The position numbers were made by a program, and so were the translations under genes. The notes below the pieces were generated by a model, which searched no databases, was not told the DNA's origin, and worked only from the letters and a program-made list of their open reading frames with translations. Below, piece by piece: positions 6,402-24,490 of a DNA stretch of 32,000 nucleotides. Origin of the DNA: Calothrix sp. NIES-4105. GTDB lineage: Bacteria; Cyanobacteriota; Cyanobacteriia; Cyanobacteriales; Nostocaceae. The stretch lies in NCBI GenBank assembly GCA_002368415.1, contig AP018290.1, positions 10,893,121-10,925,120 of the forward strand. The letters run 5' to 3'. Every line of letters begins with the position of its first letter. Within the stretch, counting starts at the first letter, position 1.

Positions 6402-8117
6402 ATGCTAGACCTGATAATTAAAAACGGTTTAGTTTTTGATGGCTTAGGAACGGCGCCTGTTCGTAGAGATATTGGTATTCAAAATGGGCAAATTGTCAAT
6501 ATTGCTTCATCGTTATCTATGGAAGCACGTGAAATGATTGATGCAACTGGGTTATGGGTAACACCTGGTTTTATCGATATTCATACGCACTATGATTTAG
6601 AGGTGGAGATTGCACCAGGACTAAGTGAGTCGGTACGTCATGGTGTTACAAGTGTAGTCATTGGTAATTGTAGTTTATCTGTAGCAATCGGGGCGCCGCA
6701 AACACTAGCAGATATTTTTCAGCGAGTTGAAACGCTTTCGCATCGACTAATTGAGAAATGGTTACAAAAATCTGTATCATGGCAAACTCCCAAAGAATAT
6801 TTACAGCATTTACAGCAGTTGCCATTAGGACCAAACGTAGCTGCAATGTTTGGACATAGTGCATTACGCGCGCATGTTATGGGGTTAGAACGCAGTTTAA
6901 AAGCTCAACCCAATGAACAAGAGTTAAAAACAATGCGGGATATTGCAGCAACTGCATTAGATGCTGGATTTATTGGTATCTCTATAGATATGTTTCCTTG
7001 GCATTTAATGAGCGGTGAATGGAGTGGTTGTACGATTCCATCGCAACATGCTCAATATAAAGAATACGTAATGCTGGCAAATTTGTGTCGTCAACGCGAT
7101 AAAGTCTTTCAGGTAACTCCCAACTTACAGCGACTTGCTTCGTTTTGGGAGATCTTTCGGATGAGTCTAGGAAAAAAACCTTTGCGCTTAACTGTACTTT
7201 CTGCTTTAGATGCTGTCCACAATCGTAAACTATGGCGGGTTTTCTCTCCTATCCTATTTATTTGGAACCGAATATTTAGAGGTAATGTCCGGTTTCAAAC
7301 TTTAACAGAACCTTTTACTATTTATTCCAACGGTTCAGTTACACCTTTATTTGAGGAATTCAAGAGTGGTGTACAACTCAATGGTTGTCAGTCAAGAGAA
7401 GAACGTCAACAATTATGGACATCACCTGGTTTTGTTTCCCAATTTCGGCGAGACTGGTGCAATAAATGGCGCCAATCATTTCATCGTCAGTTAGAACATA
7501 TGGAAATTGTAAGTTGTCCGGATGAAATATTTTGGCAGGGACTAAGTTTTGCCGAAGTCGCGCGTAAAAAACAGCAAGACCCTTTAGATTTTTTTATCGA
7601 AGTACTACAGTTATATGATACAGATTTACGGTGGGTCGCAACAGGCGCCAATGACCGACTCGAACCAAGAAAAGCGATGATGGCACATCCCCATATTTTA
7701 CCTGGATTTACTGATGCAGGGGCACATGTGCGAAACCTAGGATATTATGATGGCGCCTTGTCTTTACTTAAACAAGCTGTTGTCACACAATTTATGAAAC
7801 CAGAAACAGCCATTCATCGTGTTACCGGAGAACCTGCTAACTGGTTTCGTTTAAATACGGGAGTAATCAAGATTGGCGCCAAAGCCGATATAATTATTAT
7901 CAACCCTGATGCACTCAATCAGCCAATTAGCCCACAGGTAGAAGTTTTTGACCCAGTACTCAATGGTGAACTGCGAATGGTCAAACGTGGTTCAGAAGAA
8001 ATTATCAAAGCTGTATATATAAATGGAGTAAAAGTTGTTGAGCAGGGTAAACCAAATGAACGCTTAGGTCAAGAACGACTGGGAACAGTTTTATATAATA
8101 AATTAACAAATGACTAA
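6402..8117 (+). CDS. Amidohydrolase of the D-aminoacylase / N-acyl-D-amino-acid deacylase family
   Basis: MLDLIIKNGLVFDGLGTAPVRRDIGIQNGQIVNI ... TPGFIDIHTHYD is the typical N-terminus and metal-binding HxH of this family. I chose the ATG at 6402, 2 nt after the GT2 stop. The 6261 start in the track would overlap the GT2 gene by 139 nt. Confidence 0.8.
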   Translation: MLDLIIKNGLVFDGLGTAPVRRDIGIQNGQIVNIASSLSMEAREMIDATGLWVTPGFIDIHTHYDLEVEIAPGLSESVRHGVTSVVIGNCSLSVAIGAPQTLADIFQRVETLSHRLIEKWLQKSVSWQTPKEYLQHLQQLPLGPNVAAMFGHSALRAHVMGLERSLKAQPNEQELKTMRDIAATALDAGFIGISIDMFPWHLMSGEWSGCTIPSQHAQYKEYVMLANLCRQRDKVFQVTPNLQRLASFWEIFRMSLGKKPLRLTVLSALDAVHNRKLWRVFSPILFIWNRIFRGNVRFQTLTEPFTIYSNGSVTPLFEEFKSGVQLNGCQSREERQQLWTSPGFVSQFRRDWCNKWRQSFHRQLEHMEIVSCPDEIFWQGLSFAEVARKKQQDPLDFFIEVLQLYDTDLRWVATGANDRLEPRKAMMAHPHILPGFTDAGAHVRNLGYYDGALSLLKQAVVTQFMKPETAIHRVTGEPANWFRLNTGVIKIGAKADIIIINPDALNQPISPQVEVFDPVLNGELRMVKRGSEEIIKAVYINGVKVVEQGKPNERLGQERLGTVLYNKLTND

Positions 8118-10881: not shown

Positions 10882-11667
10882 TTACTTCTTCTGCTTCTTT
10901 TTCTTTTTGAACAACTGCTTAAATTTAAGAGAAAGAGGGTTAAAATCAAAGACTTTGCCAGTACTAAACAACTGAAAACCGAATGATATAGCCGCAAACG
11001 ATGCAAGAACAGAGAAAAGAGACACTGAACCAATGATCTTACCATTGGCGATAAATATAGCAATACCTAACCCTATTAAAATCCATCCCAACCTACGTTT
11101 ATCTTTTCCACCGTAATTTAATAGAATTACTCCGACGATACACAGTATAGTACCAGGCGCGCTACGTAAGTAGATACCAACATATATTTTCGTACTCAGA
11201 AATATAATCCCGCCAATAATCAGCCCTAAGCCAAGTAATTTACTAGCAATTGTAATTTCTGATTCAAAGTCTGTATCATCCGAATCTTCTTCATCTTCAT
11301 TCGTGACAATTTTTGTTGGCGCGCTGCCACCTTGTTGCCGAAAGATGAAACTTACCTTATCACCTTGTCCTAATGAAATCTTGTCACCAAATTTTATTGG
11401 TTGAAAAACTTTAGGTTGCAGTTTAACGCCATTTACATAAGTACCGTTAGAACTACCTAAATCAGTAATTTGATACTCTGAGCCATTAACCCAAATTTGT
11501 GCATGGACACGCGATACAATATCAGCATCTGGAAAACCAGACACATCAATATCCGGCTGCTTTCCATCATCGCCAGGTTTGCCAATCAAAATTACAGAAA
11601 GATTTGCAGGCAACACCAACCTTTCATTCGTTTGGAGATGATAAAGTTCTAAAGATACACTCTGCAT
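10882..11667 (-). CDS. FHA-domain protein with C-terminal transmembrane region and poly-Lys tail
   Basis: FHA signature ILIGKPG...DIDV...VSRVHAQI...YQITDLGSSNGTYVNG. An acidic linker is followed by about 4 predicted TM helices, ending FKKKKKQKK. Confidence 0.8.
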   Translation of the reverse strand: MQSVSLELYHLQTNERLVLPANLSVILIGKPGDDGKQPDIDVSGFPDADIVSRVHAQIWVNGSEYQITDLGSSNGTYVNGVKLQPKVFQPIKFGDKISLGQGDKVSFIFRQQGGSAPTKIVTNEDEEDSDDTDFESEITIASKLLGLGLIIGGIIFLSTKIYVGIYLRSAPGTILCIVGVILLNYGGKDKRRLGWILIGLGIAIFIANGKIIGSVSLFSVLASFAAISFGFQLFSTGKVFDFNPLSLKFKQLFKKKKKQKK

Positions 11668-11956
11668 AGTTATGAAGACTCTTTTTTACAAGTGTCTCCA
11701 CATATACAGAATTTGAGAAGCGAGAAAACCCCTAAATACGTAACTAAATATTGCAAATCATACTATGTATAAAAAGTGGCATTAGCTTTGATGGTGTTGC
11801 TGGTGCAGAAGGACGGTTTGATGAAGTGCGACAATTCCAAATTTTTCCTTATCTCTTCTGCGTGTCTTTGCGGTAATTTGTTGTGTAGAACAAGATGTCA
11901 AACGCGCGGAAGCATTAATTCAACTCGCTCAACTTGGCTCATATGATTTGAAAATG

Positions 11957-12535
11957 TTATTCTTGTAGTTCAAACTCAACATTATCGTAAATATCTGCTA
12001 GAGTAATTTCAAATTTGACAGAATTTAACGAAATCGTCGCATTCTCATCGTCATATTCGGAAAATATCCATTTATTATTATCAGTTTTGGAATATTGCTC
12101 AACGTGTATTGTATACTGGTCAATCAAAAGATACTCTTGAAAGCTTTCGATTGTCCGATAAGCACTAAATTTTTCATCTTTATCGTTACTTTTTGTAGAT
12201 TTTGATAATACTTCAGCAATGATTAGTGGATTAATAATAGTATCTCTACGTCCTTCTTGAAGCTCTAAAGGCTTTTTAACTACCATCACATCAGGATAAG
12301 TATGAATTCGCTTTTTAGGAATCCATAATCTTTGGTCTGTCATAAAAACCCGATGATGACGCTTCAAAGTAGAGTTGAGCGCACCGCTTAGGTTGAGAGC
12401 AATCTGGTTGTGATTTGGTGTTCCGCCTGTCATAGAAATTATTGTACCATCAATGTACTCATGACGCTCTTGAGAATTAACTTCGAGTTCCAGGTATTCT
12501 TCGGCTGAATAGTGCCTTTGTTCTTGCGAAATCAT
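11957..12535 (-). CDS. Uma2-family (DUF820) putative endonuclease
   Basis: SAEEYLELEVNSQERHEYIDGTIISMTGGTPNHNQIALNL ... IAEVLSKST is the characteristic Uma2 pattern found at high copy number in cyanobacteria. Confidence 0.8.
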   Translation of the reverse strand: MISQEQRHYSAEEYLELEVNSQERHEYIDGTIISMTGGTPNHNQIALNLSGALNSTLKRHHRVFMTDQRLWIPKKRIHTYPDVMVVKKPLELQEGRRDTIINPLIIAEVLSKSTKSNDKDEKFSAYRTIESFQEYLLIDQYTIHVEQYSKTDNNKWIFSEYDDENATISLNSVKFEITLADIYDNVEFELQE

Positions 12536-12745
12536 AAAATTCTAGTCCTAACGGTTAGAAATGATTCTTTTATACTATACACATTAATATATAAGTAAAA
12601 TCGTATCTAATAACTATGGTTAAATAGGTTGCCAAACAATTAAGTTAAGTTAATTCTTTATTAGGTGGTCATGATTTTCATCTATGACCATCCTAAATAA
12701 AAAATATCCAAAATGTTCTTGTGGGATAGGCATCAAAAACCCGTC

Positions 12746-13741
12746 CTACACCCTATAACCGCTTTCAATAGAGACAGCTTGGTCTGTTGATTTTGGTAGT
12801 GAATTAGCTCGTACCGCGCGGAACATCCCAAAGCGGCAAAGGCCAGTGCCGAATGCTAACCGCATTAGTAGTAAAGTAGGTACTTCGCGTAAAGATTTAA
12901 TAAAACCAGATATCCCAAAACGTACCAGTCCAGATGGTCGAGCTACTCCTTGCCAGATCGAATCTATCCATGAAGGAAGTGTTTGTTGCGTCCAATCTGC
13001 CGTTATTACGTTTCCCTCAACTAGTCCCGTTGCCTCTAAAAGTTCAGAAAAGCCTTCAATGCTGGAAAAAGCCGGATGAGACCATTGATCTAATAGTTGC
13101 TGCATTACTGGTTTTTCCCAAAAATTCAAAGGCGCCTGTCGGTCGTCCCTTTGGTTCCAGTCTGCCACAACAAGTATTCCACCAGGTTTTAACACCCTGA
13201 TTAATTCTTTAGCAAAAACGGCTTTATCTGGCATATGTGGTCCAGCTTCAATCGACCAAACTACATCAAAACTAGCATCTGGGAAAGAAAGTGCCATCGC
13301 ATCATCCACTAAAAATTGCACATTCAGTTCATCAGAAGTTAACTGCTGCGCGCGTTGGACTTGTTGCGGACTGATTGTAACACCCGTAACTGCAAATCCA
13401 TAATCCCGTGCTAATATGCGACTGCTACCACCAATTCCACAGCCTACATCCAAAAGCGTGGCGCCGTATGGTAATTTATCTAAACCACCCCAACGTACCA
13501 TTTCATCTACAAAATCAGATTTAGCAACCAGAAAATCCTTCCGTTGCGGTGGTGAACCATAATGACCCAAGTGGATATGTTCACCCCAGTAAAACTCTAA
13601 AATACCGTCTTGAGTCCATTCATCATAGGAATTAGCTACAGAGTTAGATGATTGATAACGCCGAGCAGTGATTAAATATAATGCAATCAAGAACGTCAGT
13701 ACTGCAACAACTAGTCCCAGCGCAGAAAGATACAGACTCAT
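12746..13741 (-). CDS. 2-methyl-6-phytyl/solanesyl-1,4-benzoquinol methyltransferase (MPBQ/MSBQ-MT, Synechocystis sll0418-like)
   Basis: Near-colinear match to my memory of Sll0418: an N-terminal TM helix, then YDEWTQDGILEFYWGEHIHLGHYG, the SAM motif LLDVGCGIGGSSRILA, DDAMALSFPDASFDVVWSIEAGPHMPDKAVFAKEL, ILVVADWNQRDDRQ and LCRFGMF. Confidence 0.85.
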   Translation of the reverse strand: MSLYLSALGLVVAVLTFLIALYLITARRYQSSNSVANSYDEWTQDGILEFYWGEHIHLGHYGSPPQRKDFLVAKSDFVDEMVRWGGLDKLPYGATLLDVGCGIGGSSRILARDYGFAVTGVTISPQQVQRAQQLTSDELNVQFLVDDAMALSFPDASFDVVWSIEAGPHMPDKAVFAKELIRVLKPGGILVVADWNQRDDRQAPLNFWEKPVMQQLLDQWSHPAFSSIEGFSELLEATGLVEGNVITADWTQQTLPSWIDSIWQGVARPSGLVRFGISGFIKSLREVPTLLLMRLAFGTGLCRFGMFRAVRANSLPKSTDQAVSIESGYRV

Positions 13742-13949
13742 TCTAATAAACCTTAATATTTCTTTACAATTTTATCCTATAAGCAGGCTAAAAGTATCTG
13801 TAAACCTCTGTTTGTTGAGTGTAAGTAGTTTGCTAGATTGTGGTTATTCCCTTCCTGGTGAAATACAAGTAATAAGAAATGGTAAGTTTTGTTTGCTGTG
13901 CTACTAACCTGATACTCTAAATTAGAAGTTATGTATTACAAGATGTAAG

Positions 13950-14123
13950 ATGCCAACTGCTGAACAAGGTATTAGATGTGTTATACTAAGCCAAACTTTA
14001 ACTAATACTCTTACGCCTATCTTTATTGTCCGGCTTGATGAACGTACAGGTAACTTGTTTATGCTGGCAGGCGATACTATAGAAATAGAGATTTATCGTA
14101 ATGGTTTGTGGAGGTTCTTGTAA
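13950..14123 (+). CDS. Small conserved-looking protein (57 aa), first of an overlapping pair
   Basis: ATG at 13950, TAA at 14121-14123. The protein reads MPTAEQGIRCVILSQTLTNTLTPIFIVRLDERTGNLFMLAGDTIEIEIYRNGLWRFL. It is below the ORF-track size cut-off. Its stop overlaps the next ATG (TAATG). From memory it resembles the cyanobacterial DUF6888 family. Confidence 0.45.
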   Translation: MPTAEQGIRCVILSQTLTNTLTPIFIVRLDERTGNLFMLAGDTIEIEIYRNGLWRFL

Positions 14124-14332
14124 TGAAACCTGAATTTAGTGCTATGACCAAAGCGGAGCTAAGAAGTTACGTCATTGCTCACCCCAACGATAACGAAGCA
14201 TTTTACATTTTTGTAGACCGCTTTACATCTGAAGCATCCCCAGAAACCTTTGATATCCCAAATTCTAGTGATGAGATTGAGAAAGTGGAAATTTTAATTA
14301 GGCAGAAACTGGAACAGACAAAAACTAGTTAA
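14123..14332 (+). CDS. Small protein (69 aa), second of the pair (DUF6887-like)
   Basis: MKPEFSAMTKAELRSYVIAHPNDNEAFYIFVDRFTSE... From memory it resembles a short family common in cyanobacteria. The ATG at 14123 is preferred over the GTG at 14108 because of the TAATG coupling. Confidence 0.55.
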   Translation: MKPEFSAMTKAELRSYVIAHPNDNEAFYIFVDRFTSEASPETFDIPNSSDEIEKVEILIRQKLEQTKTS

Positions 14333-14431
14333 GCTAATGTATGTCTAAGCTATATATTAGGGTAGGGCAATTAAAGGTGCCCATCCCACTCATTGTTTGA
14401 ACACGCACACACTTTAACTTCTATCATTGGG

Positions 14432-14699
14432 TACATCTGTTATATCCGTTGCCCACTTTCACCAACCATAATTCCCCGTCCTGTCAAAGCTACATACACT
14501 AAGTTTGGTGTACGCATATCACCTTCCATATAAGTAATCCCTGGAAACTGTAATATATCCGGGTCACTAATATGAATCCATGATTTGCAATATCTTCAGA
14601 TTTGTATATTGCGTCTTTAGTTGCTTTATTTACATAATTATAGACGTAGATATACGGCTGCTTATTTGATTTACCTTTGCCAAAATTTATAAATTCACA
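14432..14699 (-). pseudogene. Orphan, frameshifted copy of the last ~86 codons of the BNR/GH74-like gene (displaced 3' end; att-flank repeat)
   Basis: Colinear with 21921-22189 at roughly 88-90% identity by eye. A 1-nt deletion (GATTTGCAATATC versus GATTTACCCATATC) breaks the frame. It is not attached to any upstream coding sequence. Confidence 0.8.
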
Positions 14700-14765
14700 T
14701 CTTTTTTGTGGAGTTCCCTAAATGAAATTGTGACATCTCCTACACCAACCGCAAGTTATGTCGTT

Positions 14766-14825
14766 TACAACGTCTACAACGTAGTTACAGTAAGAGTTTA
14801 TCGTTGTTGTCATTTTCTACAACGT
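14766..14825. repeat. Three direct copies of TACAACGT near the left end of the element
   Basis: Copies at 14766-14773, 14775-14782 and 14818-14825, the last reaching the first base of the dnaB-like stop codon (14825-14827). Candidate recombinase-binding or iteron-like sites. Confidence 0.35.
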
Positions 14826-16153
14826 TAAGCTCTACCATATTTATCAGATAAGTCAACATCGCTGAAATTTCCTATATCTGTTTCAAATAATACCTTACAC
14901 ATGCCTGTAGCACCATTACGATTTTTAGCTACATTTATCTCCATTACTCCTTTATCTTGTGTGTCTGGATTATAATATTCGTCTCGATAAAGAAGTAACC
15001 CAATATCCATATCTTGTTCTATATCACCCGAGTCTTTAATATCAGCTATTGTTGGGCGTTTATTTGTTTGATTCTCCACACCTCTATTAATTTGGGCTAG
15101 TGCTATAAATGGCACATTAAATTCTTTGGCAATGTCTTTAAATGCACCAGAAAACTTACCAACTGCTTGCGCTCTATTACCTGCCGCTCTATCCCCAAGT
15201 TTTTGAATATAATCCATTACTACTAAACCTAAACTTCCTTTAGAGGACTGAACTCTTCGCAGTACAGAAGACACCCTTGAAGGGTTTTGGATACTAGCTG
15301 GCGTATCATCAATAATAATAAGTAATTGGTTTAAAGCTACTACAGCTTGTTTTAAATTATCCATTTCGTCTCGATATATCTGATTGCTCATCAGCCTACT
15401 AGAATCAATACCCGAATGCATTGCCAAAAATCTTTTAGTTAACTGCGATTTAGACATTTCCGCAGAAAAGAAAACAACAGGTAGTTGTTGATGGATTGCA
15501 ATATGATTAGCAAAATGGCAACCTAACCAGGTTTTACCCATTGATGCCCTAGCAGCGATTACAATTAAATCCTGTTTATTTAATCCTCCTATTAATGCAT
15601 CTAAATCTTTTAATCCAGTAGAAAAGCCTGGAGTATACCCTTGTTGTAATTCATCAAATACTTCTCTTATCGACTCACTTATTAGTTGTGGTTGAAATTT
15701 ATCTTGCTTGTTTGCTGTTAAATTAAAAATTTTATTCTCTGATTGTTCTAGGACTGCTTGAACTCCTTGTGTTGTATCGTAGCCTAATTCCACAATTTCA
15801 TTACCAGCCCTAATTAGCTGCCGACGCAGGTATTTATCCAAAACAAGCTTTGCTAGGTTATCTATATTTATAGCTGATACTATTTCAATTAATTGAGCTA
15901 GCTGATTCTTCCCACCAACTTTAGTTAATAGTTTATGGTCGGATAACCAAGATGTAACTGTTACTAAATCGGTTGGTTTACCCTGATGGTATAATTCTAA
16001 TATTACTTTATAAATTTGTTGGTAAGCAGGAACGTAAAATGCTTCTGGCACTAAAATATCAGCAATTCTACCAATAGCATTTGGGTCTAACAAGCAACCA
16101 CCAAGTATGTCTGATTCTGCTTCAATAATTTGTGGAGGTATTTTATCATTCAT
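14825..16153 (-). CDS. DnaB-family replicative-type DNA helicase (element-encoded, 442 aa, intein-free)
   Basis: N-terminal DnaB domain (PPQIIEAESDILGGCLLDPNAI...PAYQQIY...GKPTDLVTV). Walker A is IVIAARASMGKTWL and Walker B is LVVMDYIQ. ALAQINRGVENQTNKRPTIADIKDSGDIEQDMDIGLLLYRDEYY is the canonical DnaB C-terminal signature. Its ATG overlaps the upstream stop (ATGAATGA). Confidence 0.9.
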   Translation of the reverse strand: MNDKIPPQIIEAESDILGGCLLDPNAIGRIADILVPEAFYVPAYQQIYKVILELYHQGKPTDLVTVTSWLSDHKLLTKVGGKNQLAQLIEIVSAINIDNLAKLVLDKYLRRQLIRAGNEIVELGYDTTQGVQAVLEQSENKIFNLTANKQDKFQPQLISESIREVFDELQQGYTPGFSTGLKDLDALIGGLNKQDLIVIAARASMGKTWLGCHFANHIAIHQQLPVVFFSAEMSKSQLTKRFLAMHSGIDSSRLMSNQIYRDEMDNLKQAVVALNQLLIIIDDTPASIQNPSRVSSVLRRVQSSKGSLGLVVMDYIQKLGDRAAGNRAQAVGKFSGAFKDIAKEFNVPFIALAQINRGVENQTNKRPTIADIKDSGDIEQDMDIGLLLYRDEYYNPDTQDKGVMEINVAKNRNGATGMCKVLFETDIGNFSDVDLSDKYGRA

Positions 16154-17018
16154 GGGGTTTATCCATATCTATAAAAATATTACTAATTTCTGCCAGTTCA
16201 GTTATAGACACTAGTGTTCTGTCTGAATCGGCATGAGATAATGTTTTTGTTACTGGCTGTGCTTCAATATTTTTTGAAGTAGATTTTTGCGATGAAGGAG
16301 AAGGCTCCCATTTCTCTCTGATTGCTTGAACAACTAAACCACCTATGTTGTTAACATCGTTCTGTTGGATATACTGCTCAACTGCTAAAAGTGACCTAAT
16401 TACCTCTTGCTCATCCAAAGATGTAATAAGTTTAGTAAGAGTAGAATTAAGTTTAATTTCTAAGCTCTCTAGTTTTTGGTGGATTGATTCAGGTATTTCC
16501 TTCCCTTTACGAGAGACTTTTGTAATTGGTATTACCCTTTGAGGTATTTTAGATTCAAGATTAGCTAATTCCTGTTTTAATTCTTGAACCTCATGTGTTA
16601 GTTTTTCATTTTCTAACTTTAAACGTTCAGTTAAATCATTTGCTCCTTGCATCTGATAAAGCTTACCAGTAAGCGATTCGTTAATTTTTCGTAACTCATC
16701 AATTTCTACTCTCAAACGCTTATTTTCTTCCCTCAATGTTGAAATAATTACAGTTTTAGAGTTATCCGATGCTGGCGGAACTTCCTTAAGTTTAGGCTTT
16801 TGTTTCTGCTGGTCACGTAAAGTTTCAATTCTATTTCTCAAATCTTCCTGCTTGTACAAGTAAGCAGTCGATACATTAGCAGCAGTAGCAACAGATTTAA
16901 AGCTAATTATTTGACCCTGTTTTATCATCCTCTCAAGTGCTTTCTCCACTCGTTCTGCTGTTATGAGCGCTTTCTGTGCTGCCGCCTCTTGTAAAGCTTC
17001 TATCTTCTTATTAGTCAT
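16146..17018 (-). CDS. TnpC-like accessory protein: N-terminal HTH-like segment plus long coiled coil (290 aa)
   Basis: The N-terminus (ALQEAAAQKALITAERVEKALERMIKQGQIISFKSVATAANVSTAYLYKQEDLRNRIETLR) resembles the small third gene of Tn554-type three-gene modules (DUF6262-like, from memory). Residues ~90-160 are heptad-rich (ENKRLRVEIDELRKINE...LKLENEKLTHEVQELKQELANLE). The ATG overlaps the upstream stop (ATGACTAA). Confidence 0.55.
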   Translation of the reverse strand: MTNKKIEALQEAAAQKALITAERVEKALERMIKQGQIISFKSVATAANVSTAYLYKQEDLRNRIETLRDQQKQKPKLKEVPPASDNSKTVIISTLREENKRLRVEIDELRKINESLTGKLYQMQGANDLTERLKLENEKLTHEVQELKQELANLESKIPQRVIPITKVSRKGKEIPESIHQKLESLEIKLNSTLTKLITSLDEQEVIRSLLAVEQYIQQNDVNNIGGLVVQAIREKWEPSPSSQKSTSKNIEAQPVTKTLSHADSDRTLVSITELAEISNIFIDMDKPHE

Positions 17019-18603
17019 TATCTGCCTCCAAGGTTTTAATTACTTTCTCTAAGTTGTCTTTGATAGGCGTATTTTTATGAACTTGTAGCTGCCAACCACA
17101 ATTCTGGGCTTTTTCTAAAACGTTGTTAGTGCGCTCTAAAGTATCTTTTAGAATGGGCAGGAAGTTTTTGTTTGTTCTCCAGTGTGGGCAGTTGTAGCAG
17201 CCATCAAAACCAGGAATATCACAATCTCCTAATACCTTGGGTCTAGCACAATAACCATGCTCCAATGCTCTGGCTTGCACATTTTTTTTGAACCACTCTA
17301 AATCATCATTACTAGAGAGTATCGTTTCGTCTAATTCAGTAGTTTCACCTTGGAAATTAACTACTTTTGATTCGTGATACTTTTCAACTTCTTTTCTGAG
17401 CGTTTCATCATGAATGTGAGCATATACCATTGTCATCGTTGGCGATTCATGACCTAAATAGCGCTGAACAATATGTTGTGGAACACCATTATTTATCATG
17501 CGAGTTCCAACTGTATGTCGAAATTGATGAGTCTGAAAATTCCAAGTTTTGCCTGTGCTTTCGCAAATGTTAAATTGCTCTGCTAAACGTTTTAAATGAT
17601 TAGCAAATGATTGGTCTGACATAACTCTAGGTACAGGAACAAATTTTGAAGATGCTTTTCTTCCACAAAAAAGGTACTTATAATCTTTACCAAAATTCTG
17701 TTGAATATAAACCTGCTGCTCTTTAATAACTTGAGCAAGTTCTATAGATATAGGTAGGGTTGTTTCAAAATTCATCTTCCAACGCATAAATTGAATAAAC
17801 CACCCACCCTTATTATCTTGTTTGAGGCAATCTAACCCTAGTTGACATAGCTCACCTATCCTCAAACCACATTCTTGAATAACTAATACCATTCGCATTA
17901 TTGGCTCTGGTAATACATCTAAGTGTTGATTTAGTTGTCCAATAACCTCTTCTGGAATATAACGAGGTAAAGCCTTATCGCGTTTTGGATAATCTTCTTT
18001 GCGTACCAAATAAGGTTCAACTGTAAACCATTTATTAGCGGAACCGACTTCAAACAAGGATACTAAAGCAGAAATACACTTACCTTTAGTTATTTGAGCC
18101 AATGATTCTTTGTTGAGGTAAAACAAATAATTAATGATTACTTCCCTAGTAATATTTTCTATTTTGTTTATCTCAGGCTGATTCAACAAGAATTTTGAAA
18201 AATAACGAAATCGATACAAAAAAGATTGTAAGCTTTGAAAACTGCTTGTCTGACTAGCTTTGTACTTAATAAATTTTTTAATGTATACCTTTAACCACTC
18301 TTGATAAATATTCCGATTAAAGTTAAGTTTATCTCCATCATTACTGTGAAGCTTAACCTGTAAACCTAAATCAGCAGCAGTCCATACATCATCGCTTTTC
18401 ACTAGTTTTTTGCGATTAGCGAAAGGAACAAACTGAGCGTCGCAATTTTTACACCGATATCTTTGTTTTCCTGATTTTTTAAACCCTGCTTTTATATAAT
18501 TATCACTTCCACATTTTGAGCAAACAATTTGTGCTGGTAAAACAACCTGAAGTTCTGTTTTTACTTGAAGTTTCTGCTCTAATTTATTGTTCATTTTCAC
18601 CAT
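17011..18603 (-). CDS. Large tyrosine recombinase (Tn554 TnpB-like) with N-terminal zinc ribbon and C-terminal Cys cluster
   Basis: Catalytic residues are GLRIGELCQL (Arg), HQFRHTVGT (HxxR) and LGHESPTMTMVYAHI (His...Tyr). The N-terminal zinc ribbon is CSKCGSDNY...YRCKNCDAQF. The C-terminal Cys cluster is HGYCARPKVLGDCDIPGFDGCYNCPHW. The start is ATG 18603 or 18594, and either overlaps the upstream gene. Confidence 0.85.
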   Translation of the reverse strand: MVKMNNKLEQKLQVKTELQVVLPAQIVCSKCGSDNYIKAGFKKSGKQRYRCKNCDAQFVPFANRKKLVKSDDVWTAADLGLQVKLHSNDGDKLNFNRNIYQEWLKVYIKKFIKYKASQTSSFQSLQSFLYRFRYFSKFLLNQPEINKIENITREVIINYLFYLNKESLAQITKGKCISALVSLFEVGSANKWFTVEPYLVRKEDYPKRDKALPRYIPEEVIGQLNQHLDVLPEPIMRMVLVIQECGLRIGELCQLGLDCLKQDNKGGWFIQFMRWKMNFETTLPISIELAQVIKEQQVYIQQNFGKDYKYLFCGRKASSKFVPVPRVMSDQSFANHLKRLAEQFNICESTGKTWNFQTHQFRHTVGTRMINNGVPQHIVQRYLGHESPTMTMVYAHIHDETLRKEVEKYHESKVVNFQGETTELDETILSSNDDLEWFKKNVQARALEHGYCARPKVLGDCDIPGFDGCYNCPHWRTNKNFLPILKDTLERTNNVLEKAQNCGWQLQVHKNTPIKDNLEKVIKTLEADND

Positions 18604-19699
18604 CTCTTGCTGCCAAATACTTGTCGTACTCTATCCGTAAATCGTTATCTGTTAAATGCACATAGGTATTAATGGTGGTTTGAATATCTGTATGTCCTAA
18701 CCGTTTTTGCACATACGCCATTTCCCAGCCTGACCTGATTAATTCTGTTGCATGAGTATGTCTCAATAAGTGTGGATTAACTTTTATGTCAGTTTTTTTA
18801 GACAATCTCCTAAATAAACTATCAACAGTTTTGTAACTTAATGGTGTACCAATTTTTCCCTTTCCCGGAGCTTGAATAACTACAAAAACAAAGTCACAGT
18901 CAATATCTTCTGGGTACTCGTCAATTAAATAAGCTGAGTACCATTGCATAAGTTCTTTACTAACATGAACTATCCGTTCTACTCCAGATTTAGCTCTAAC
19001 GTAGTTAATATTATCTAATCTTGGTACAACATGAATCTCATTGTTTTTACCTGTAACCATATCTTCATGTCTCAGCCCCAGAGCCTCCCCTATTCGTAGC
19101 CCTGTTTCGTATAACAACCTGACTAAAAATTTATCTCGTAATGTGTTACAAGCGGAGACTAATTTGTTAACTTCTTCAGCAGTTAAACATCCAGGGAATT
19201 TTTTCGGCTCTTTAATTTTTAGCAACCGCGTTTTAACTTCTTTCCCTTTACTTATATGGTGTAAAAAAGGTTTATATTTACGACCTGGCTGTAATTGATA
19301 GCGATAAACATAAACGTCAACTTCTTTGGTTACTTCAATACGTTCTTGAAACTCATAAAATCCACAAACAGTTGTTAAACAGTGATTAATTGTTTTCTCG
19401 CAACGTTTGGAAACTTGTGGTTGGATAGATAATACTCCTGAATTAGGATTTCTCAGCCAATGGATAAAGTTTGATAACTCCTCCATATTTATCTCAAACC
19501 AACTTAGCTTTGAATCCTTTAAGAACGCCCAAAACAGCTTCAGGTTATGAGCATAAGTTTGAATCGTATTTGGAGAACGCCCTACACTGTCTAAATAATG
19601 CAAGTACTTTTGAATTGGCTCAATGGGTAAATAGTCATCGTCCAGTACCATCCAAACCGGACGGTCGGTGTCTGGGATGATACCCTTTTGAACTTTCAT
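18584..19699 (-). CDS. Tyrosine recombinase (Tn554 TnpA-like, ~371 aa)
   Basis: A core-binding-type N-terminal domain (SPNTIQTYAHNLKLFWAFL). Catalytic residues are GLRIGEALGLRHEDM (Arg), HLLRHTHATELI (HxxR) and LGHTDIQTTINTYVHL (His...Tyr). I prefer the ATG at 19699 (MKVQKGIIPD...), which is preceded by GGGGGCAGTGAG, over the 19765 start in the track. Confidence 0.85.
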   Translation of the reverse strand: MKVQKGIIPDTDRPVWMVLDDDYLPIEPIQKYLHYLDSVGRSPNTIQTYAHNLKLFWAFLKDSKLSWFEINMEELSNFIHWLRNPNSGVLSIQPQVSKRCEKTINHCLTTVCGFYEFQERIEVTKEVDVYVYRYQLQPGRKYKPFLHHISKGKEVKTRLLKIKEPKKFPGCLTAEEVNKLVSACNTLRDKFLVRLLYETGLRIGEALGLRHEDMVTGKNNEIHVVPRLDNINYVRAKSGVERIVHVSKELMQWYSAYLIDEYPEDIDCDFVFVVIQAPGKGKIGTPLSYKTVDSLFRRLSKKTDIKVNPHLLRHTHATELIRSGWEMAYVQKRLGHTDIQTTINTYVHLTDNDLRIEYDKYLAARDGENEQ

Positions 19700-19823
19700 C
19701 TCACTGCCCCCAATACCGATATTTACGCTATAGACGTAGTTTACTATAAAGCGTAAATATGACAACAGCGTAGTGATAAAACTTAATATCAGCTACGCTG
19801 TTGTTGTTGTTGTTATTTATAAT

Positions 19824-21233
19824 TTAATAAGAGATAACTTGCGGTATAGTGTAGGCATCCGAAAGAGTCTTTTTCAAGATATCAATGATTTCCTTCGCGG
19901 TACTTTCTTCCATAGTTCCAACTACAGAAATCTTCCCACTACGGCGTCTTATTCTGGGGAAAATGCCCAACCCCAGTCGCTTCAAATTAATAGAGGCATT
20001 AATGTCTCTATCAACTTTCAACATTTCTTTCTCATCCCAATATTCTGGAATATCAGTATCAGTAAAAACTATTTCATTCCGATAGCTGAGAACTTGGGAA
20101 GAATACGCAGGATTTTGAGGTATTACAACGGCTCCAGCTTTTCCGGCTATGTGACCCAATATCTCAAAAAACTGTCCAAAAGCAGCATCCATCCAAGACT
20201 TATTCAATCCCGACTTTGCAGATTGTCCATTTGGCAAATATTTACCATCTTCGTCTTGTTTGGGTGCATTTCTTTTGCTCAAACCTTGTAAATTTAACTT
20301 TTCTGGGAAAAATACTTTCTTCCCAGTACGGACTAGTTTGTGAGCAGTTTTATATTGAAAATCTTTACGACTTCTAGCTATTTTTTGATGCCGTCGAGCT
20401 TCTTTTTTAGCTAGTTTACGTCGTGACTTACTGCCACGTTTACGTTTATTTCTATCTATCGAAATTTTGTCTAGTTTGTGCTGATTCCTGCGTAAAGATT
20501 TTAAACTTGCTAATTTAGTCCCTTCAGATGTTGCTAGATAATCATCTTCGTGCAAAACAGCATCTAATCCTATTGAATTTTCCCATGTTGGGGTAATTGA
20601 ATCAGGATTAAATTCCGGCACAGAAGTATCTTCTAGGCACATTTGCATGTACCAACCGTCAACCTTTTTAGTTACACCAACTTGTTTTAATTTAAAACCA
20701 AGTGGCAACGGTCGATGCATTCTAACTTTAACAACTCCAAGTTTCGGCAGACGCAAATAAAGCCAATTCTTACGAACTAGTTTTATCCAATCATCATTTG
20801 CACTTGCGAATGTCATGGTTCGGAAACTCGCTTCTGTTTTAAAGCGTGGTTTACCTGACCGCTTACCATTACAATCACCAAGAATATAACGAGCGAAAGC
20901 TTCATCAACTCGTTTACAAATATCCTGAAGGATAGTTGAGTCAACACGAGTAAAATCAAGCAATTCCCCGCTATGCATTACCCGAACCAAGTCTTGCTTG
21001 ATAATGGGTAATTGCAATTTCTGATTGTAATAATTTGGGCGATTCCCAAACAGTGTTGGAAATATTTCTTTCCACTGCGGAAATGCTTGTAATTGCAAGT
21101 GATTATTCTGCCACCAAGTGAAGCGTTCACCCAACTGACGGTTATACCAGTAACGGGAGATCCGCAACCAATCATTAAGCTCTAGCTTTTGATTAGTGTC
21201 TGGATAAAATTTATACTGGTATGTAGTCTTCAT
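19824..21233 (-). CDS. tnpB: IS605-type TnpB (RuvC-like RNA-guided nuclease family), variant without zinc-finger cysteines
   Basis: The start is MKTTYQYKFYPDTNQKLELNDW (ATG at 21233). The RuvC triad candidates are IGLDAVL (Asp), VFFPEKLNLQGL (Glu) and KVDRDINASINL (Asp). Between NPAYSSQ and DRDIN the usual CxxC...CxxC is replaced by VLSYRNEIVFTDTDIPEYWDEKEML. Confidence 0.85.
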   Translation of the reverse strand: MKTTYQYKFYPDTNQKLELNDWLRISRYWYNRQLGERFTWWQNNHLQLQAFPQWKEIFPTLFGNRPNYYNQKLQLPIIKQDLVRVMHSGELLDFTRVDSTILQDICKRVDEAFARYILGDCNGKRSGKPRFKTEASFRTMTFASANDDWIKLVRKNWLYLRLPKLGVVKVRMHRPLPLGFKLKQVGVTKKVDGWYMQMCLEDTSVPEFNPDSITPTWENSIGLDAVLHEDDYLATSEGTKLASLKSLRRNQHKLDKISIDRNKRKRGSKSRRKLAKKEARRHQKIARSRKDFQYKTAHKLVRTGKKVFFPEKLNLQGLSKRNAPKQDEDGKYLPNGQSAKSGLNKSWMDAAFGQFFEILGHIAGKAGAVVIPQNPAYSSQVLSYRNEIVFTDTDIPEYWDEKEMLKVDRDINASINLKRLGLGIFPRIRRRSGKISVVGTMEESTAKEIIDILKKTLSDAYTIPQVISY

Positions 21234-21255
21234 AAACGCTCCGACAAGAGCGTAA

Positions 21256-21284
21256 TTGACTTGGTGTTTGAATATGGTTATACT
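21256..21284 (+). promoter_or_regulatory. Sigma70-like promoter for tnpA (TTGACT, 17 nt spacer, TATACT)
   Basis: -35 TTGACT at 21256-21261 and -10 TATACT at 21279-21284 with a 17-nt spacer. It lies about 18 nt upstream of the GTG at 21302, in the divergent tnpB/tnpA spacer. Confidence 0.4.
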
Positions 21285-21301
21285 ATCAAAGTGTTTATAC
21301 G

Positions 21302-21721
21302 GTGTCAAGCGTGAAAGAAGATTTTATTTCCCGTGCCAGAGGGGTGTCAGACCTCAAGGCACATTTGGTGTTGACTACAAAGTACCGTAGAAAAGTATTT
21401 ACAGGAGAAATGATTAATCGGCTGCATGAAATACTGAAAGAACTATTGAAAAAATGGGATTGTGAAGTGGTTGATTTTAACGGCGAATCTGATCATGTAC
21501 ACTTGCTTTTTCGTTACACTCCACAAACTGAACTACCCAAATTTATTAATAACGTTAAGACTGTCACAAGTCGTTACTTACGCAAAGAATTTGCTGATAG
21601 AATTAATCAATTTTATAAAAAAGATGTTCTTTGGAATGGCTCATATTTTATTGCATCGTGTGGAGGCATAACAGTTGAAACACTTAAAAAGTATGTCGAA
21701 TCCCAAAACAAGCCTGAATAA
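21302..21721 (+). CDS. tnpA: IS200/IS605 Y1 (HUH) transposase TnpA
   Basis: LKAHLVLTTKYRRKVF, the HUH motif SDHVHLLF and the catalytic-Tyr region NGSYFIASCGG. The start is GTG 21302 or GTG 21311. Confidence 0.85.
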   Translation: MSSVKEDFISRARGVSDLKAHLVLTTKYRRKVFTGEMINRLHEILKELLKKWDCEVVDFNGESDHVHLLFRYTPQTELPKFINNVKTVTSRYLRKEFADRINQFYKKDVLWNGSYFIASCGGITVETLKKYVESQNKPE

Positions 21722-21928
21722 TTTGTCAAAAATACAACGGGAGCATCCACTTGTTCCTAATTAATCAGGAATTTGGTGGAAGGGGCGTTATATTTTTGAC
21801 TGCCTTATATCCCGACACCAACCACTTCGTGGTATGGTGCGGGGCTTACGGCAAGAAGCTAAATTAAATATGTAGTGTTGGGTTCCGCAAAGCCTTCACC
21901 CAACCAACGAGTTTATCCGTTACATCCG

Positions 21929-24490
21929 TTATATCCGTTGCCCACTTTCACCCATCATAATTCCCCGTCCTGTCAAAGCTACATACACTAAGTTAGGTGT
22001 ACGCATATCACCTTCCATATAAGTAATCCCTGGAAATTGTAATACATCAGGGTCGCTGATACGAATCCATGATTTACCCATATCTTCAGATTTATATATC
22101 GCGTCTTTAGTCGCGTTATTTACACGTCCAAATATGTAAATATACGGATGTTTATTTGATTTACCTTTGCCAAACGTTATAAATTCACAGCTATTAACTG
22201 ATGTGATTTTATTAAAAGTCTTTCCACCGTCAGTTGAATGATACAAAGGATTTCCATTTACATCTTCAGGGTTACGCGCGAAACTTATCCAAATGTCTCC
22301 TTGTTGTGTAGGATTACTTATAATAGCAGGGCGAATTAGCCAACCAGGAAAATTACTAGCTGCACTTTTATTCCAATTGGCGCCACCATCATTACTATAA
22401 TAGAAGCCATCAACATTGAAGTAATAGAAAGTTTTACCTTGGGGGTCTTTTCTATCTGCTGCTAAAATATATGAACTTAACCAAGGATTAATACTGTTTG
22501 ACCATGATTTAGGTAAAGCTTGGTAGTGAAGATGGTCGTTGTTTTTTTCGTCAAACGGTTGAGGTGGGGGATTATAATCTAAATTGCGCGCAATTCTCCA
22601 AGTTTTACCACCATCATTAGTATAGTGTGTCCAAGTTCCCCAAGTTGGCGCCCATACCATATTTTGCGGATTAGTTGGGGACATGGCAATTTGTCCACCT
22701 ATTGCATAAACTTTCTCTTTTCCTGACTTGTCACTTTTCCAAAGTTCTTCTGTAGGGATAGACTCGAATGCTTTCCAAGTTCGACCATTATCGCTAGTTA
22801 CACCATGTATTCCCCAAAACCCTTGCCATTGATGAAAACCTACAAACGCCGCATAATCAGGATTATTGTAGGAATAGTCCATTCCTGTTGCACCTGCTAC
22901 GTGAGGAAATGGAACGGGATATACTTTCCAGTCAGGGTTTGCCGATTTGAAACTAGGATTAATAAGTACACCTTGTGGGCTAATACTTTTTGTTGGTACT
23001 TCATAGCGGCTAACATGGCGAAACCCTATTTTATCTTGTGTAGCGCTTAATAAATCTGCACCCCCTTGTGCTTTAGGTTTGGGTGGTACCCGCACCATAT
23101 TTGAGTCTAATTCTTCTAAATTATTCATCAACCATTGGTAAACAGGAGTTTTAACCGTCACATCATCACTACTTGCAACTCCCCAACCGTTTGTCCACCA
23201 AACTTTTTTTAAATTACTTGGGTCAAATATAATTGATGCGGCGCCAGTTGAAGCGTAAGATTGATAGTAGCCTGGTGCAGTAGGATTCACTTTATCCTTG
23301 GGATTGTTTGCATCAAAGGCGCCCATATACATTGTTTGTTTATTCCAACTTTGTCCACCATTGGTGGACATATAAACAAACTTATCAGCAACTGCCATTA
23401 TTGTGTTAGGTTGATTTGGCTGTACGGTAATAGCTGAATAGACTCTTTCTTCTGCATCAGGTGTGATAGATGTCCAATTACCATTACTATACTTACGAAT
23501 ACTTCCTGATGTATTTTGACCATTACCACCCCAAGTTCCAAATGCTACATATAATGTTCCATCACTAGCAACTGCCGCGCGTAAAGGATTATTGGCGCCT
23601 TCAATATTATTCCACGAATTACCACCATCAGTACTGCGCCAAACTCCGCTGCCATGAACACCTACATATATAGTTTGTGTTTTACCTATACTTTTTGCTT
23701 TGTCAAACACAACAAATGTAAAACCAGGTATATCTTTATTTTCCTTACCATCTTTTTGATATTCTGGCAGACTACTAGGTTCAGGTAAATTACCTGTAAC
23801 GCGCGTCCAATCTGCATTACCGTCTTTTCTCCATAGACCATCACGTCGCGAAGCAAAGTAAATTAATTCTGATTTATTTGGGTCAACTGCTAACCGTTCC
23901 CCTGTATCTGAACGATATGCTTGATTTGGGCCAACATAAATATTATGTTTCCCTAAACCTGTTGGTTGCCATGTAACACCTTTATTACTAGATACTAATA
24001 TTTCACCTGAATATTTATATTTAAGCTTTTCTTCATCTTTAAAAGTCAAATTATTACGATTTATGGCAGCATAGACACGACTTGTCAATCCATCAACAGT
24101 AATACTTTCTACGCCAATTCCACCAGAGGAGAAATTAGTATCAAACATGTCCATCAAAGGCAACCATGTTTTATTCTCACGGTCAAAACGATAGGCGCCA
24201 CCAATATCAGTACGAACGTATACATCATAAGGCGAAGTTGGATTAATTACTAAACCTGTAACATAACCCATTCCTTGAATATTCACATTGCGCCAAGTAA
24301 ACAAGTTATTTCCTTGTGTTGACCTTATAGGTACTGGTGGAGGTGCTTTTGCGCGTACTAAAACAGGTGCTTGTACTGTTTCATTTTGAACACCCTCCAC
24401 AACAGGAGCTTGTGTACAAGCGTGTAAATTTAATAGTACTAACACACTTGCTGTCAATTGTAATAAGAATAAAATTAGGCGCCGTTTCAT
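21929..24490 (-). CDS. BNR/Asp-box repeat, double beta-propeller lipoprotein (GH74-like / sortilin-Vps10-like glycosidase)
   Basis: Lipoprotein signal MKRRLILFLLQLTASVLVLLNLHAC. At least 8 Asp-box motifs (SxDxGxTW type): SSNKGVTW, STDGGNSW, STNGGQSW, TSDNGRTW, TNDGGKTW, SNDGGANW, STDGGKTF and SEDMGKSW. Its last 86 codons fall within the right copy of the element-flanking repeat. Confidence 0.8.
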   Translation of the reverse strand: MKRRLILFLLQLTASVLVLLNLHACTQAPVVEGVQNETVQAPVLVRAKAPPPVPIRSTQGNNLFTWRNVNIQGMGYVTGLVINPTSPYDVYVRTDIGGAYRFDRENKTWLPLMDMFDTNFSSGGIGVESITVDGLTSRVYAAINRNNLTFKDEEKLKYKYSGEILVSSNKGVTWQPTGLGKHNIYVGPNQAYRSDTGERLAVDPNKSELIYFASRRDGLWRKDGNADWTRVTGNLPEPSSLPEYQKDGKENKDIPGFTFVVFDKAKSIGKTQTIYVGVHGSGVWRSTDGGNSWNNIEGANNPLRAAVASDGTLYVAFGTWGGNGQNTSGSIRKYSNGNWTSITPDAEERVYSAITVQPNQPNTIMAVADKFVYMSTNGGQSWNKQTMYMGAFDANNPKDKVNPTAPGYYQSYASTGAASIIFDPSNLKKVWWTNGWGVASSDDVTVKTPVYQWLMNNLEELDSNMVRVPPKPKAQGGADLLSATQDKIGFRHVSRYEVPTKSISPQGVLINPSFKSANPDWKVYPVPFPHVAGATGMDYSYNNPDYAAFVGFHQWQGFWGIHGVTSDNGRTWKAFESIPTEELWKSDKSGKEKVYAIGGQIAMSPTNPQNMVWAPTWGTWTHYTNDGGKTWRIARNLDYNPPPQPFDEKNNDHLHYQALPKSWSNSINPWLSSYILAADRKDPQGKTFYYFNVDGFYYSNDGGANWNKSAASNFPGWLIRPAIISNPTQQGDIWISFARNPEDVNGNPLYHSTDGGKTFNKITSVNSCEFITFGKGKSNKHPYIYIFGRVNNATKDAIYKSEDMGKSWIRISDPDVLQFPGITYMEGDMRTPNLVYVALTGRGIMMGESGQRI

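Follow-up and report, generated by a model that had tools for sequence, protein, structure and literature searches.

A complete transposon of 5,086 bp lies on the minus strand at 14754..19839 in a 32,000-nucleotide stretch of the genome of Calothrix sp. NIES-4105 (contig AP018290.1, positions 10,893,121 to 10,925,120; hereafter the window), with its left end (LE) at 19839 and its right end (RE) at 14754. Its genes encode two tyrosine recombinases, a TnpC-like protein and a helicase of the DnaB family. Our preferred reading, to which we assign a probability of about 0.45, is that it is an intact cyanobacterial element of the Tn554 branch, that DnaB has become a fixed fourth transposition gene in one sub-lineage of this branch, and that the helicase is recruited by TnpC and replicates the transposition intermediate. 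The DnaB coupled to TnpC marks a conserved sub-lineage of the Tn554 family that is apparently undescribed, and in the searchable literature we found no description of a dnaB-carrying operon of the Tn554 type. The hard-wiring of dnaB to TnpC, together with an exchange of a TnpC domain, points to the replication step in the movement of Tn554, SE and GInt elements, and the compact four-gene system offers a handle on this step in Tn554/SE-type elements.

The operon and the transposon ends

On the minus strand between 14825 and 19699, four open reading frames (ORFs) were present and each overlapped the next from start to stop. The first encodes a tnpA-like small tyrosine recombinase of 371 amino acids (aa) at 18584-19699, with Pfam Phage_integrase and SAM_1 domains; its start is the ATG at 19699, and its alignment with Tn554 TnpA begins at residue 1. 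It is followed by a tnpB-like large tyrosine recombinase at 17011-18603 (527 aa from the ATG at 18594, or 530 aa from 18603), a tnpC-like protein of 290 aa at 16146-17018 with DUF6262 and a coiled coil, and dnaB at 14825-16153, which encodes an intein-free DnaB-family hexameric helicase of 442 aa (TIGR00665). The overlaps read ATGAACAATAA at 18594-18584 between the two recombinase genes, ATGACTAA at 17018-17011 between the tnpB-like and tnpC-like genes and ATGAATGA (8 nt) at 16153-16146 between the tnpC-like gene and dnaB, exactly as quoted in a preliminary description of this DNA, which had recognized the four overlapping genes. In profile searches with hidden Markov models (HMMs) the scores, such as 109 and 132 bits of the two recombinases with Phage_integrase, were far above chance, and therefore the four are not chance ORFs. 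The proteins match exactly the entries of Calothrix sp. NIES-4071. As read from the overlap, dnaB is translationally coupled to tnpC.

As the Tn554 reference we used a plasmid of Enterococcus faecium (CP131122.1), in which ant(9)-Ia and erm(A) come after tnpA-tnpB-tnpC. In BLASTP searches the small recombinase was 45% identical to Tn554 TnpA over 367 aa, end to end (E 2e-113), the large recombinase was 40% identical to TnpB over 460 aa (E 1e-100), and the TnpC-like protein was 37% identical to Tn554 TnpC over residues 13-121, the whole of TnpC (E 2e-19). The last protein also matched PF19776 (DUF6262) with 37.5 bits against a cut-off of 29, and the staphylococcal TnpC carries the RefSeq label 'DUF6262 family protein'. 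The same-strand, packed order tnpA-tnpB-tnpC is common to the window and Tn554, in which tnpA and tnpB overlap by 4 nt. The resemblance of the three genes to tnpA-tnpB-tnpC, proposed earlier from the letters alone, is thus borne out by both identity and order. By the sequence criteria tested, it is a matter of true homology and not of analogy, and the window element belongs to the Tn554 family. The two recombinases are also not of the ordinary phage-integrase kind, given the strong homology to Tn554 and a search of viral contigs that gave no relatives; a phage context was dismissed on that search.

Like Tn554, and also Tn558 and Tn6674, the window element has homologous proteins in the same order, overlapping frames, short imperfect terminal inverted repeats and further genes past tnpC. 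It differs from Tn554 in several respects. About 70 aa at the N-terminus of the large recombinase are unlike Tn554 TnpB and consist of an IS1/IS1595-type zinc ribbon in place of the Tn554 N-terminus (NF050000, 41 bits; cut-off 28). The preliminary description had regarded both this ribbon and a C-terminal Cys cluster as additions to the Tn554 plan; the ribbon is indeed extra, whereas the Cys cluster aligns with that of Tn554 TnpB. The window TnpC is 170 aa longer than that of Tn554, dnaB has joined the operon, elements of the window type target palindromes and the ends of insertion sequences (ISs) of the IS200/IS605 family whereas Tn554 targets att554, and the host belongs to the Cyanobacteria. 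Tn554-type three-protein elements have been reported in the searchable literature only from Staphylococcus and Enterococcus (PMC10214605). The large recombinase has more than 1000 homologues, almost all of them cyanobacterial. The range of the Tn554 family extends from Firmicutes to a large and active cyanobacterial radiation, with more than 1000 clusters of large recombinases and multiple copies in some genomes.

To place the limits of the element we compared it with related loci, designated here by L-numbers; a scan of species-representative genomes gave 80 loci encoding relatives of the large recombinase, and almost all of them had the trio of small recombinase (recS), large recombinase (recL) and tnpC. 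Six identical three-gene copies of 3.78 kb with unrelated flanks in one genome (L018-L023) define the element ends. Their left end begins with AGTTATGTC, after which come an (AAC)n run and a hairpin, and their right end contains repeats of the ACGTTGTAGA type and terminates in GACATAACT. The window has the same ends, with tips AGTTATCTC at 19831-19839(-) and AGTTATGTC/GACATAACT at 14754-14762, and three matches to the end sequences were found in the window against 0.42 expected. The 9-bp tips, AGTTATSTC/GACATAACT, give the element short imperfect inverted repeats.

The left end (19700..19839, minus strand) comprises the terminal inverted repeat AGTTATCTC, the (AAC)n run and a hairpin made of an inverted pair of ACGCTGTTG repeats (19763-19771 and 19795-19803), and it is 86-98% identical to the left ends of L002, L003, L005, L007, L009 and L035. 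A weak -35/-10 match lies in it at 19765-19738; the promoter and terminator scan gave fewer matches than shuffled controls. The right end (14754..14824, minus strand) comprises three ACGTTGTA(G/A) repeats (14817-14825, 14774-14782 and 14765-14773) and the terminal GACATAACT; in three-gene elements, homologous right ends come immediately after tnpC. All four ACGYTGTWG repeats of the 32-kb window fall within the two ends. Because the ends known from L018-L023 bracket the window genes, dnaB is inside the transposon, and the same ends also bracket dnaB in L035, L014, L060 and L097. The distance from the dnaB stop to the transposon tip is 71 nt, all of it end sequence, which leaves no room for a separate origin.

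TnpC and DnaB as an inherited unit

The window TnpC is laid out as a DUF6262 region (about residues 9-116), a coiled coil (about 85-160), a conserved helical region (about 180-245) and a short tail ending in LVSITELAEISNIF. The coiled-coil extension that had been noticed earlier is real in comparison with the 125-aa TnpC of Tn554, but it is not peculiar to the window, since practically every cyanobacterial relative has it, whether dnaB is present or not. The extension matched no Pfam family beyond DUF6262, and a profile search against the PDB gave only coiled-coil noise. What varies with dnaB is the C-terminus. All 14 distinct TnpCs that precede a DnaB of the window clade have the short tail, L-x-x-L-x-x-[LI]-[SN]-x-[IL]-F, and all of the roughly 43 TnpCs without dnaB have instead a 55-aa W-rich C-terminal domain (F-x-E-W-Y-x-x-A…L-V-x-A-S…W-x-x-F-x-E-M…Y-P-L-E). 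In the sole mixed case (L001), the long W-rich domain is followed 24 nt downstream by a frameshifted dnaB of a different lineage (39% identity). An origin of the tail from a helicase loader or a Rep protein was considered and dismissed; in other cyanobacterial mobile elements (L029, L087-L092), the proteins encoded ahead of dnaB have no such tail.

The two genes also travel together. Between the window and L035 (Scytonema), the synonymous divergence (dS) was 0.2-0.3 for tnpC and dnaB and 1.4 for recS, and recL was only 51% identical. This mosaic divergence indicates that modules recombine between elements. Compared across loci in this way, tnpC and dnaB are inherited as a unit across different recombinase backgrounds. 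The elements are mosaic in other respects as well; the large recombinase of L035 is of a different type, with no zinc ribbon in the alignment.

Linkage of tnpC and dnaB was found in about 17 distinct loci in several cyanobacterial orders, so the four-gene order, whose conservation elsewhere had been put forward as a check on the first description, recurs in many cyanobacterial genomes. The DnaBs of the same clade that follow tnpC are 62-92% identical to that of the window. The gene stands directly after tnpC in Microcoleus (L004, L075), Chamaesiphon (L008, L016, L017), Richelia (L012), Crocosphaera chwakensis (L014), Scytonema (L015, L035), Nostoc linckia (L083), Calothrix PCC 7716 (L093, L094) and Okeania (L096), on plasmids of Stanieria (L097) and Chondrocystis (L148), in metagenomes (L081, L082) and in L060. 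An 8-nt tnpC/dnaB overlap of the ATGAxTGA type was kept in 10 of the 13 junctions examined. Calothrix PCC 7716 has two 100%-identical copies of 6,680 bp with dnaB, at 4.76 and 10.19 Mb; identical copies at such distant sites imply that dnaB transposes with the element.

The helicase itself appeared complete. It scored 464.4 bits with TIGR00665 (cut-off 385.25), had complete PF00772 and PF03796 domains in one continuous match across both, with no intein, and matched solved replicative DnaBs over its full length (2r6a, E 8e-85). Walker A, Walker B and the arginine finger are intact, and the motifs ARASMGKT (Walker A), SAEMS (catalytic Glu), MDYIQ (Walker B) and NKRP (arginine finger) are 98-100% conserved in 114 clade members. 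HMM and motif evidence thus agree with the first description of a full-length, intein-free DnaB with intact Walker motifs. More than 114 full-length clusters at 90% identity, of 432-445 aa, were at least 65% identical to the window DnaB, and many of them were on element-sized contigs. The ratio of non-synonymous to synonymous divergence (dN/dS) of dnaB was 0.10-0.15, with 0.13-0.15 for the window against L035 and L015. Judged by these values and motifs, the transposon dnaB is under purifying selection and encodes a functional helicase.

The nearest proteins outside the clade were 45-51% identical; some were DnaBs from other mobile elements of cyanobacteria and the rest were chromosomal DnaBs with an intein. 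The identity of the window protein to chromosomal-type cyanobacterial DnaB was 44-48%. In a neighbour-joining tree the Tn554-linked DnaBs formed one clade, apart from the chromosomal type (Acaryochloris, Leptolyngbya, Trichocoleus and others) and nearest to the DnaBs of other mobile elements. The phylogenetic placement suggested with the first description therefore puts this DnaB in a mobile-element clade and separates it from the chromosomal type. Copies of the clade also occur on plasmids, and the split of the gene into two ORFs on the Chondrocystis plasmid means that it is dispensable there. The window DnaB stayed below the cut-offs of the SPI-7-type model NF040583 (318 bits against 655) and the phage model TIGR03600 (373 against 499). 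The DnaB of L029, which is 40% identical, was dismissed as a chromosomal reference; it adjoins a Rep-like gene in another mobile element. Hundreds of cyanobacterial annotations as 'replicative DNA helicase' appear to refer to transposon genes.

The role of the helicase

A replication-linked role, recruited through TnpC, is the one we infer and favour from homology and co-variation. By homology with Tn554 and SE elements, the recombinases and the DNA-binding TnpC-like protein would pair the ends, with their 9-bp inverted repeats and subterminal ACGYTGTWG repeats, and strand exchange at the paired ends would give a bridged or circular intermediate. The short tail of TnpC, to judge from the co-variation and the coupling, may then recruit or load the hexamer of the element DnaB at the recombination complex, and DnaB could attract the primase and polymerase of the host, which would replicate the 5-kb element. 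Such replication might copy out a figure-eight, or might be a conversion or brief replication of an excised circle, and would need no origin or initiator of the element's own. The resulting copy would integrate at the centre of a hairpin-forming palindrome, very often at an IS200/IS605 end. For SE elements, and perhaps for Tn554, copy-out that needs a replicated figure-eight intermediate has been proposed, and the word 'helicase' occurs 0 times in that paper, which names no replication factor (PMC10214605). Convergent hints in favour of this role come from two relatives, L001 with a dnaB of a second lineage within its ends and L004 with a ParM-like gene behind dnaB.

A more specific form of this proposal seems to us doubtful as it stands. 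In it, TnpC would act as an adaptor that loads the element DnaB at the synapse with neither origin nor initiator, the replisome would copy the element out, and in the relatives without dnaB the W-rich domain of TnpC would recruit the host helicase. If it is true, the elements described here would be the first evidence from nature for a replicative mode of Tn554/SE-type elements, and would provide a new, origin-independent route of helicase loading.

Several observations weigh against a replicative role of DnaB. About 85% of the family loci transpose without dnaB, one such element being present in six copies, and the helicase is therefore dispensable for the basic mechanism of the family. No contig of element size had the terminal overlaps expected of circles, and metagenome contigs yielded no RE-LE junction, although with only about 18 true ends of that type there the negative is weak. 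The contig of the dnaB-bearing L035 had a coverage of 60x against about 68x for the chromosome, and this chromosomal level means that there is no steady-state amplification. The DnaB tree is a neighbour-joining tree that carries no support values. The single-sequence AlphaFold model of TnpC, with a mean confidence (pLDDT) of 54.6, was too poor to use, and the overlapping dnaB start could in part impose the TnpC tail through nucleotide constraints. Finally, dnaB occupies exactly the cargo position of Tn554 family members.

The last point leads to the possibility that dnaB is only a passenger (a spare or inhibitor-resistant helicase, or a gene for addiction or anti-defence) that takes no part in transposition. 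Tn554 has no helicase, as the preliminary description had noted, and spc and ermA stand downstream of its tnpC where the window has dnaB; in other relatives the place is taken by unrelated genes, namely those for an MT-A70 methylase and a nuclease in L003 and for a zinc-ribbon protein in L060. Paralogues of dnaB are frequent on cyanobacterial plasmids and other mobile elements, and the gene can be lost, as the copy in two ORFs on the Chondrocystis plasmid illustrates. However, ordinary cargo is not joined to tnpC by a conserved 8-nt overlap, does not come with a lineage-wide exchange of the C-terminal domain of TnpC, and is not inherited together with tnpC across recombinase backgrounds. Moreover, one DnaB clade has persisted although the recombinases of the elements have diverged to 42-65% identity. 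We consider that a mere passenger is unlikely.

We hold it to be equally unlikely that DnaB serves as a non-replicative motor that drives branch migration, strips complexes or couples insertion to the forks at which palindromes extrude. Its function would then resemble that of the accessory ATPases that serve Mu, Tn7, IS21 and Tn5053, and the evidence from coupling, co-variation and conservation applies equally to such a role. The insertions lie at the centres of hairpin-forming palindromes, which are exposed on single-stranded DNA at forks. Kaplan and O'Donnell reportedly showed in 2002 that DnaB can encircle duplex DNA, drive branch migration and displace proteins. MuB, TnsC, IstB and TniB are likewise oligomeric and nucleotide-dependent, and are encoded beside the transposase and expressed with it. 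They are, however, AAA+ proteins that work with DDE transposases, whereas the window has a RecA-fold DnaB with tyrosine recombinases and no similarity to the AAA+ regulators; the similarity hits of the window DnaB were DnaB_C, AAA_25 and KaiC (RecA-like), and it gave no match to AAA+ HMMs of the IstB/TniB type. The relatives without dnaB use the same palindromes and IS605 ends, which means that the choice of target is independent of DnaB, and the complete primase-binding N-terminal domain and the equivalog-level score favour a role of the replisome type.

It is still less probable that the element is an integrative mini-plasmid, in which the excised circle would replicate autonomously with DnaB as the replication protein and the joined ends as the origin. 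In L004 a ParM-like actin gene (ALP_N) follows dnaB within the element ends, and many family members were found as element-sized contigs of 4-6 kb. Such contigs are explained by multicopy repeats, as in L007, which had a coverage of 335x against about 68x for the chromosome and ended at the element tips. The element contains no initiator, no primase and no spare non-coding DNA, and the dnaB-bearing L035 was at single-copy coverage. A circular or plasmid form was thus left without support by the contig overlaps and by the metagenome junctions, the negative from the latter being the weak one given above.

That dnaB is the essential replicative helicase of the host, standing by chance beside a recombinase cluster, is hardly credible: the score above the TIGR00665 equivalog cut-off and the RefSeq name 'replicative DNA helicase' would fit it, and a search with the extein of an intein-containing DnaB retrieved Acaryochloris-type and Leptolyngbya-type DnaBs and no second dnaB labelled NIES-4071, but the gene lies within transposon ends nested in an IS, its clade was found only beside DUF6262 genes and includes plasmid, duplicate and pseudogenised copies, and its identity to the chromosomal type is as low as given above.

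An integrating element with a DnaB of its own has partial parallels in other systems. SPI-7/PAPI-1-type islands, as well as cyanobacterial plasmids and prophage-like elements, likewise combine an integrase or recombinase with a DnaB of their own. Those of the SPI-7 type and the cyanobacterial DnaB-carrying elements are large, however, with full modules for replication or transfer and their own initiators (a Rep-like gene stands upstream of dnaB in L029 and L092), whereas in the window element DnaB is the sole non-recombination gene of a 5-kb transposon and is coupled to tnpC. Casposons and pipolins are integrating elements with a core replication enzyme of their own, a family-B DNA polymerase and not a helicase, and their integrase is Cas1 or XerC/D-like; to our knowledge, their genes share no homology with those of the window.

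Insertion sites, variants and neighbouring genes

The element is flanked by two halves that are reverse complements of each other, …CCTACACTATACCGCA and TGCGGTTGGTGTAGG…, and the palindrome so restored lies at the stop codon of the tnpB gene of an IS200/IS605 copy. The left half (19840..19856, minus strand, …CCTACACTATACCGCA) is in the last codons of this IS605-type tnpB, and the right half (TGCGGTTGGTGTAGG…) is at 14706..14753 (minus strand), an interval that also contains the rest of the IS200/IS605 end, displaced by the insertion. The host IS copy, which lies outside the element, is at 19824..21721, with its tnpB at 19824-21308 (-) and its tnpA at 21302-21721 (+), and its genes matched the Pfam families OrfB_IS605, HTH_OrfB_IS605, Cas12f1-like_TNB and Y1_Tnp. 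Flanks in the form of palindrome halves with no repeat were seen in the window (19840-19856 and 14738-14753), L018 and L021, and the palindromes observed were CTCTGA/TCAGAG, GTCTTC/GAAGAC and ACCGCA/TGCGGT. Other insertions had the same 6 nt on both sides (TAGAAG in L005, GGCAGG in L097, GAGTAC in L024), as read from the occupied sites. These 6 nt may be a target duplication, a shared overlap sequence or a carried-over core; Tn554 makes no target duplication and takes a 6-bp core along from its donor site.

Tn554-like cyanobacterial elements, with or without dnaB, were found recurrently at or inside IS200/IS605 copies and often exactly at the 3' end of the IS tnpB. Further insertions associated with these ISs are L097 (1143-2309), L148 (7349-7996), L004 (20520-21617), L033 and L036 (near 11541), L018 and L022 (near 13317) and L019 (near 9249), and several right-end flanks on metagenome contigs resemble tnpB coding sequence. 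This suggests that the hairpin-forming ends or the guide-RNA regions of IS200/IS605 are a preferred target. Recurrent insertion in these ends bears on the integrity of the guide RNA of TnpB.

The preliminary description had also linked the four-gene module to a duplicated gene end beside it. There is a direct repeat of 275 nt at 14432-14705 and 21921-22195, with blocks that are 94% and 84% identical and a 1-nt indel between them, but its two copies enclose the IS200/IS605 copy and, nested in that copy, the Tn554-like element, and so flank the IS and not this element. It is the 3' end of a gene for an 853-aa protein with BNR/sortilin repeats (21929-24490, minus strand), and its left copy is frameshifted. 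IS200/IS605 elements produce no target duplications. The repeat was dismissed as an attachment site for the transposon, whose tips are at 14754 and 19839.

The loci without dnaB, about 85% of the total, are bare three-gene elements of 3.8 kb or have a different cargo, for example a methylase and a nuclease. In L003 these are an MT-A70 methylase and a PD-(D/E)XK nuclease at 12564-14387, and L060 has a zinc-ribbon protein as cargo. The L001 element (8 kb, LE at 7612, RE at 15590) has acquired its frameshifted dnaB of another lineage, at 11427-12759, independently. In L004 (LE 8731, RE 20519) the actin-like gene of the ParM type (ALP_N) is at 14987-16234, after dnaB and inside the ends. The dnaB of L148 (5971-7332, on plasmid1 of Chondrocystis sp. 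NIES-4102) is split into the ORFs dnaB2_2 and dnaB2_1, and the element is additionally broken by transposase genes, so that it is a decaying copy.

Some variants have five genes: between those for the two recombinases stands an extra one, for an integrase-fold protein of 465-485 aa (L083, 5184-6629; L093/L094, 4912-6369; L096, 4438-5886; L148, 565-1962). SE and GInt elements are proteobacterial, have four core genes with a non-catalytic integrase-fold protein (Tfp or GinC) between the recombinases, and none has been reported to encode a helicase; in the window no gene stands between recS and recL, while in L083, L093/L094, L096 and L148 the integrase-fold gene is in the Tfp position. Such variants recall the IntA-Tfp-IntB-Srap layout, and this similarity of gene order hints that the Tn554 and SE/GInt families are linked.

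Of the neighbouring genes, a small DUF6887 ORF is present at 14108-14332 (+), close to the duplicated gene end but not in it; farther left in the window, at 11957-12535 (-), there is a Uma2-like ORF. Pairs of DUF6887 and DUF6888 genes also adjoin another mobile element that carries dnaB (L090).

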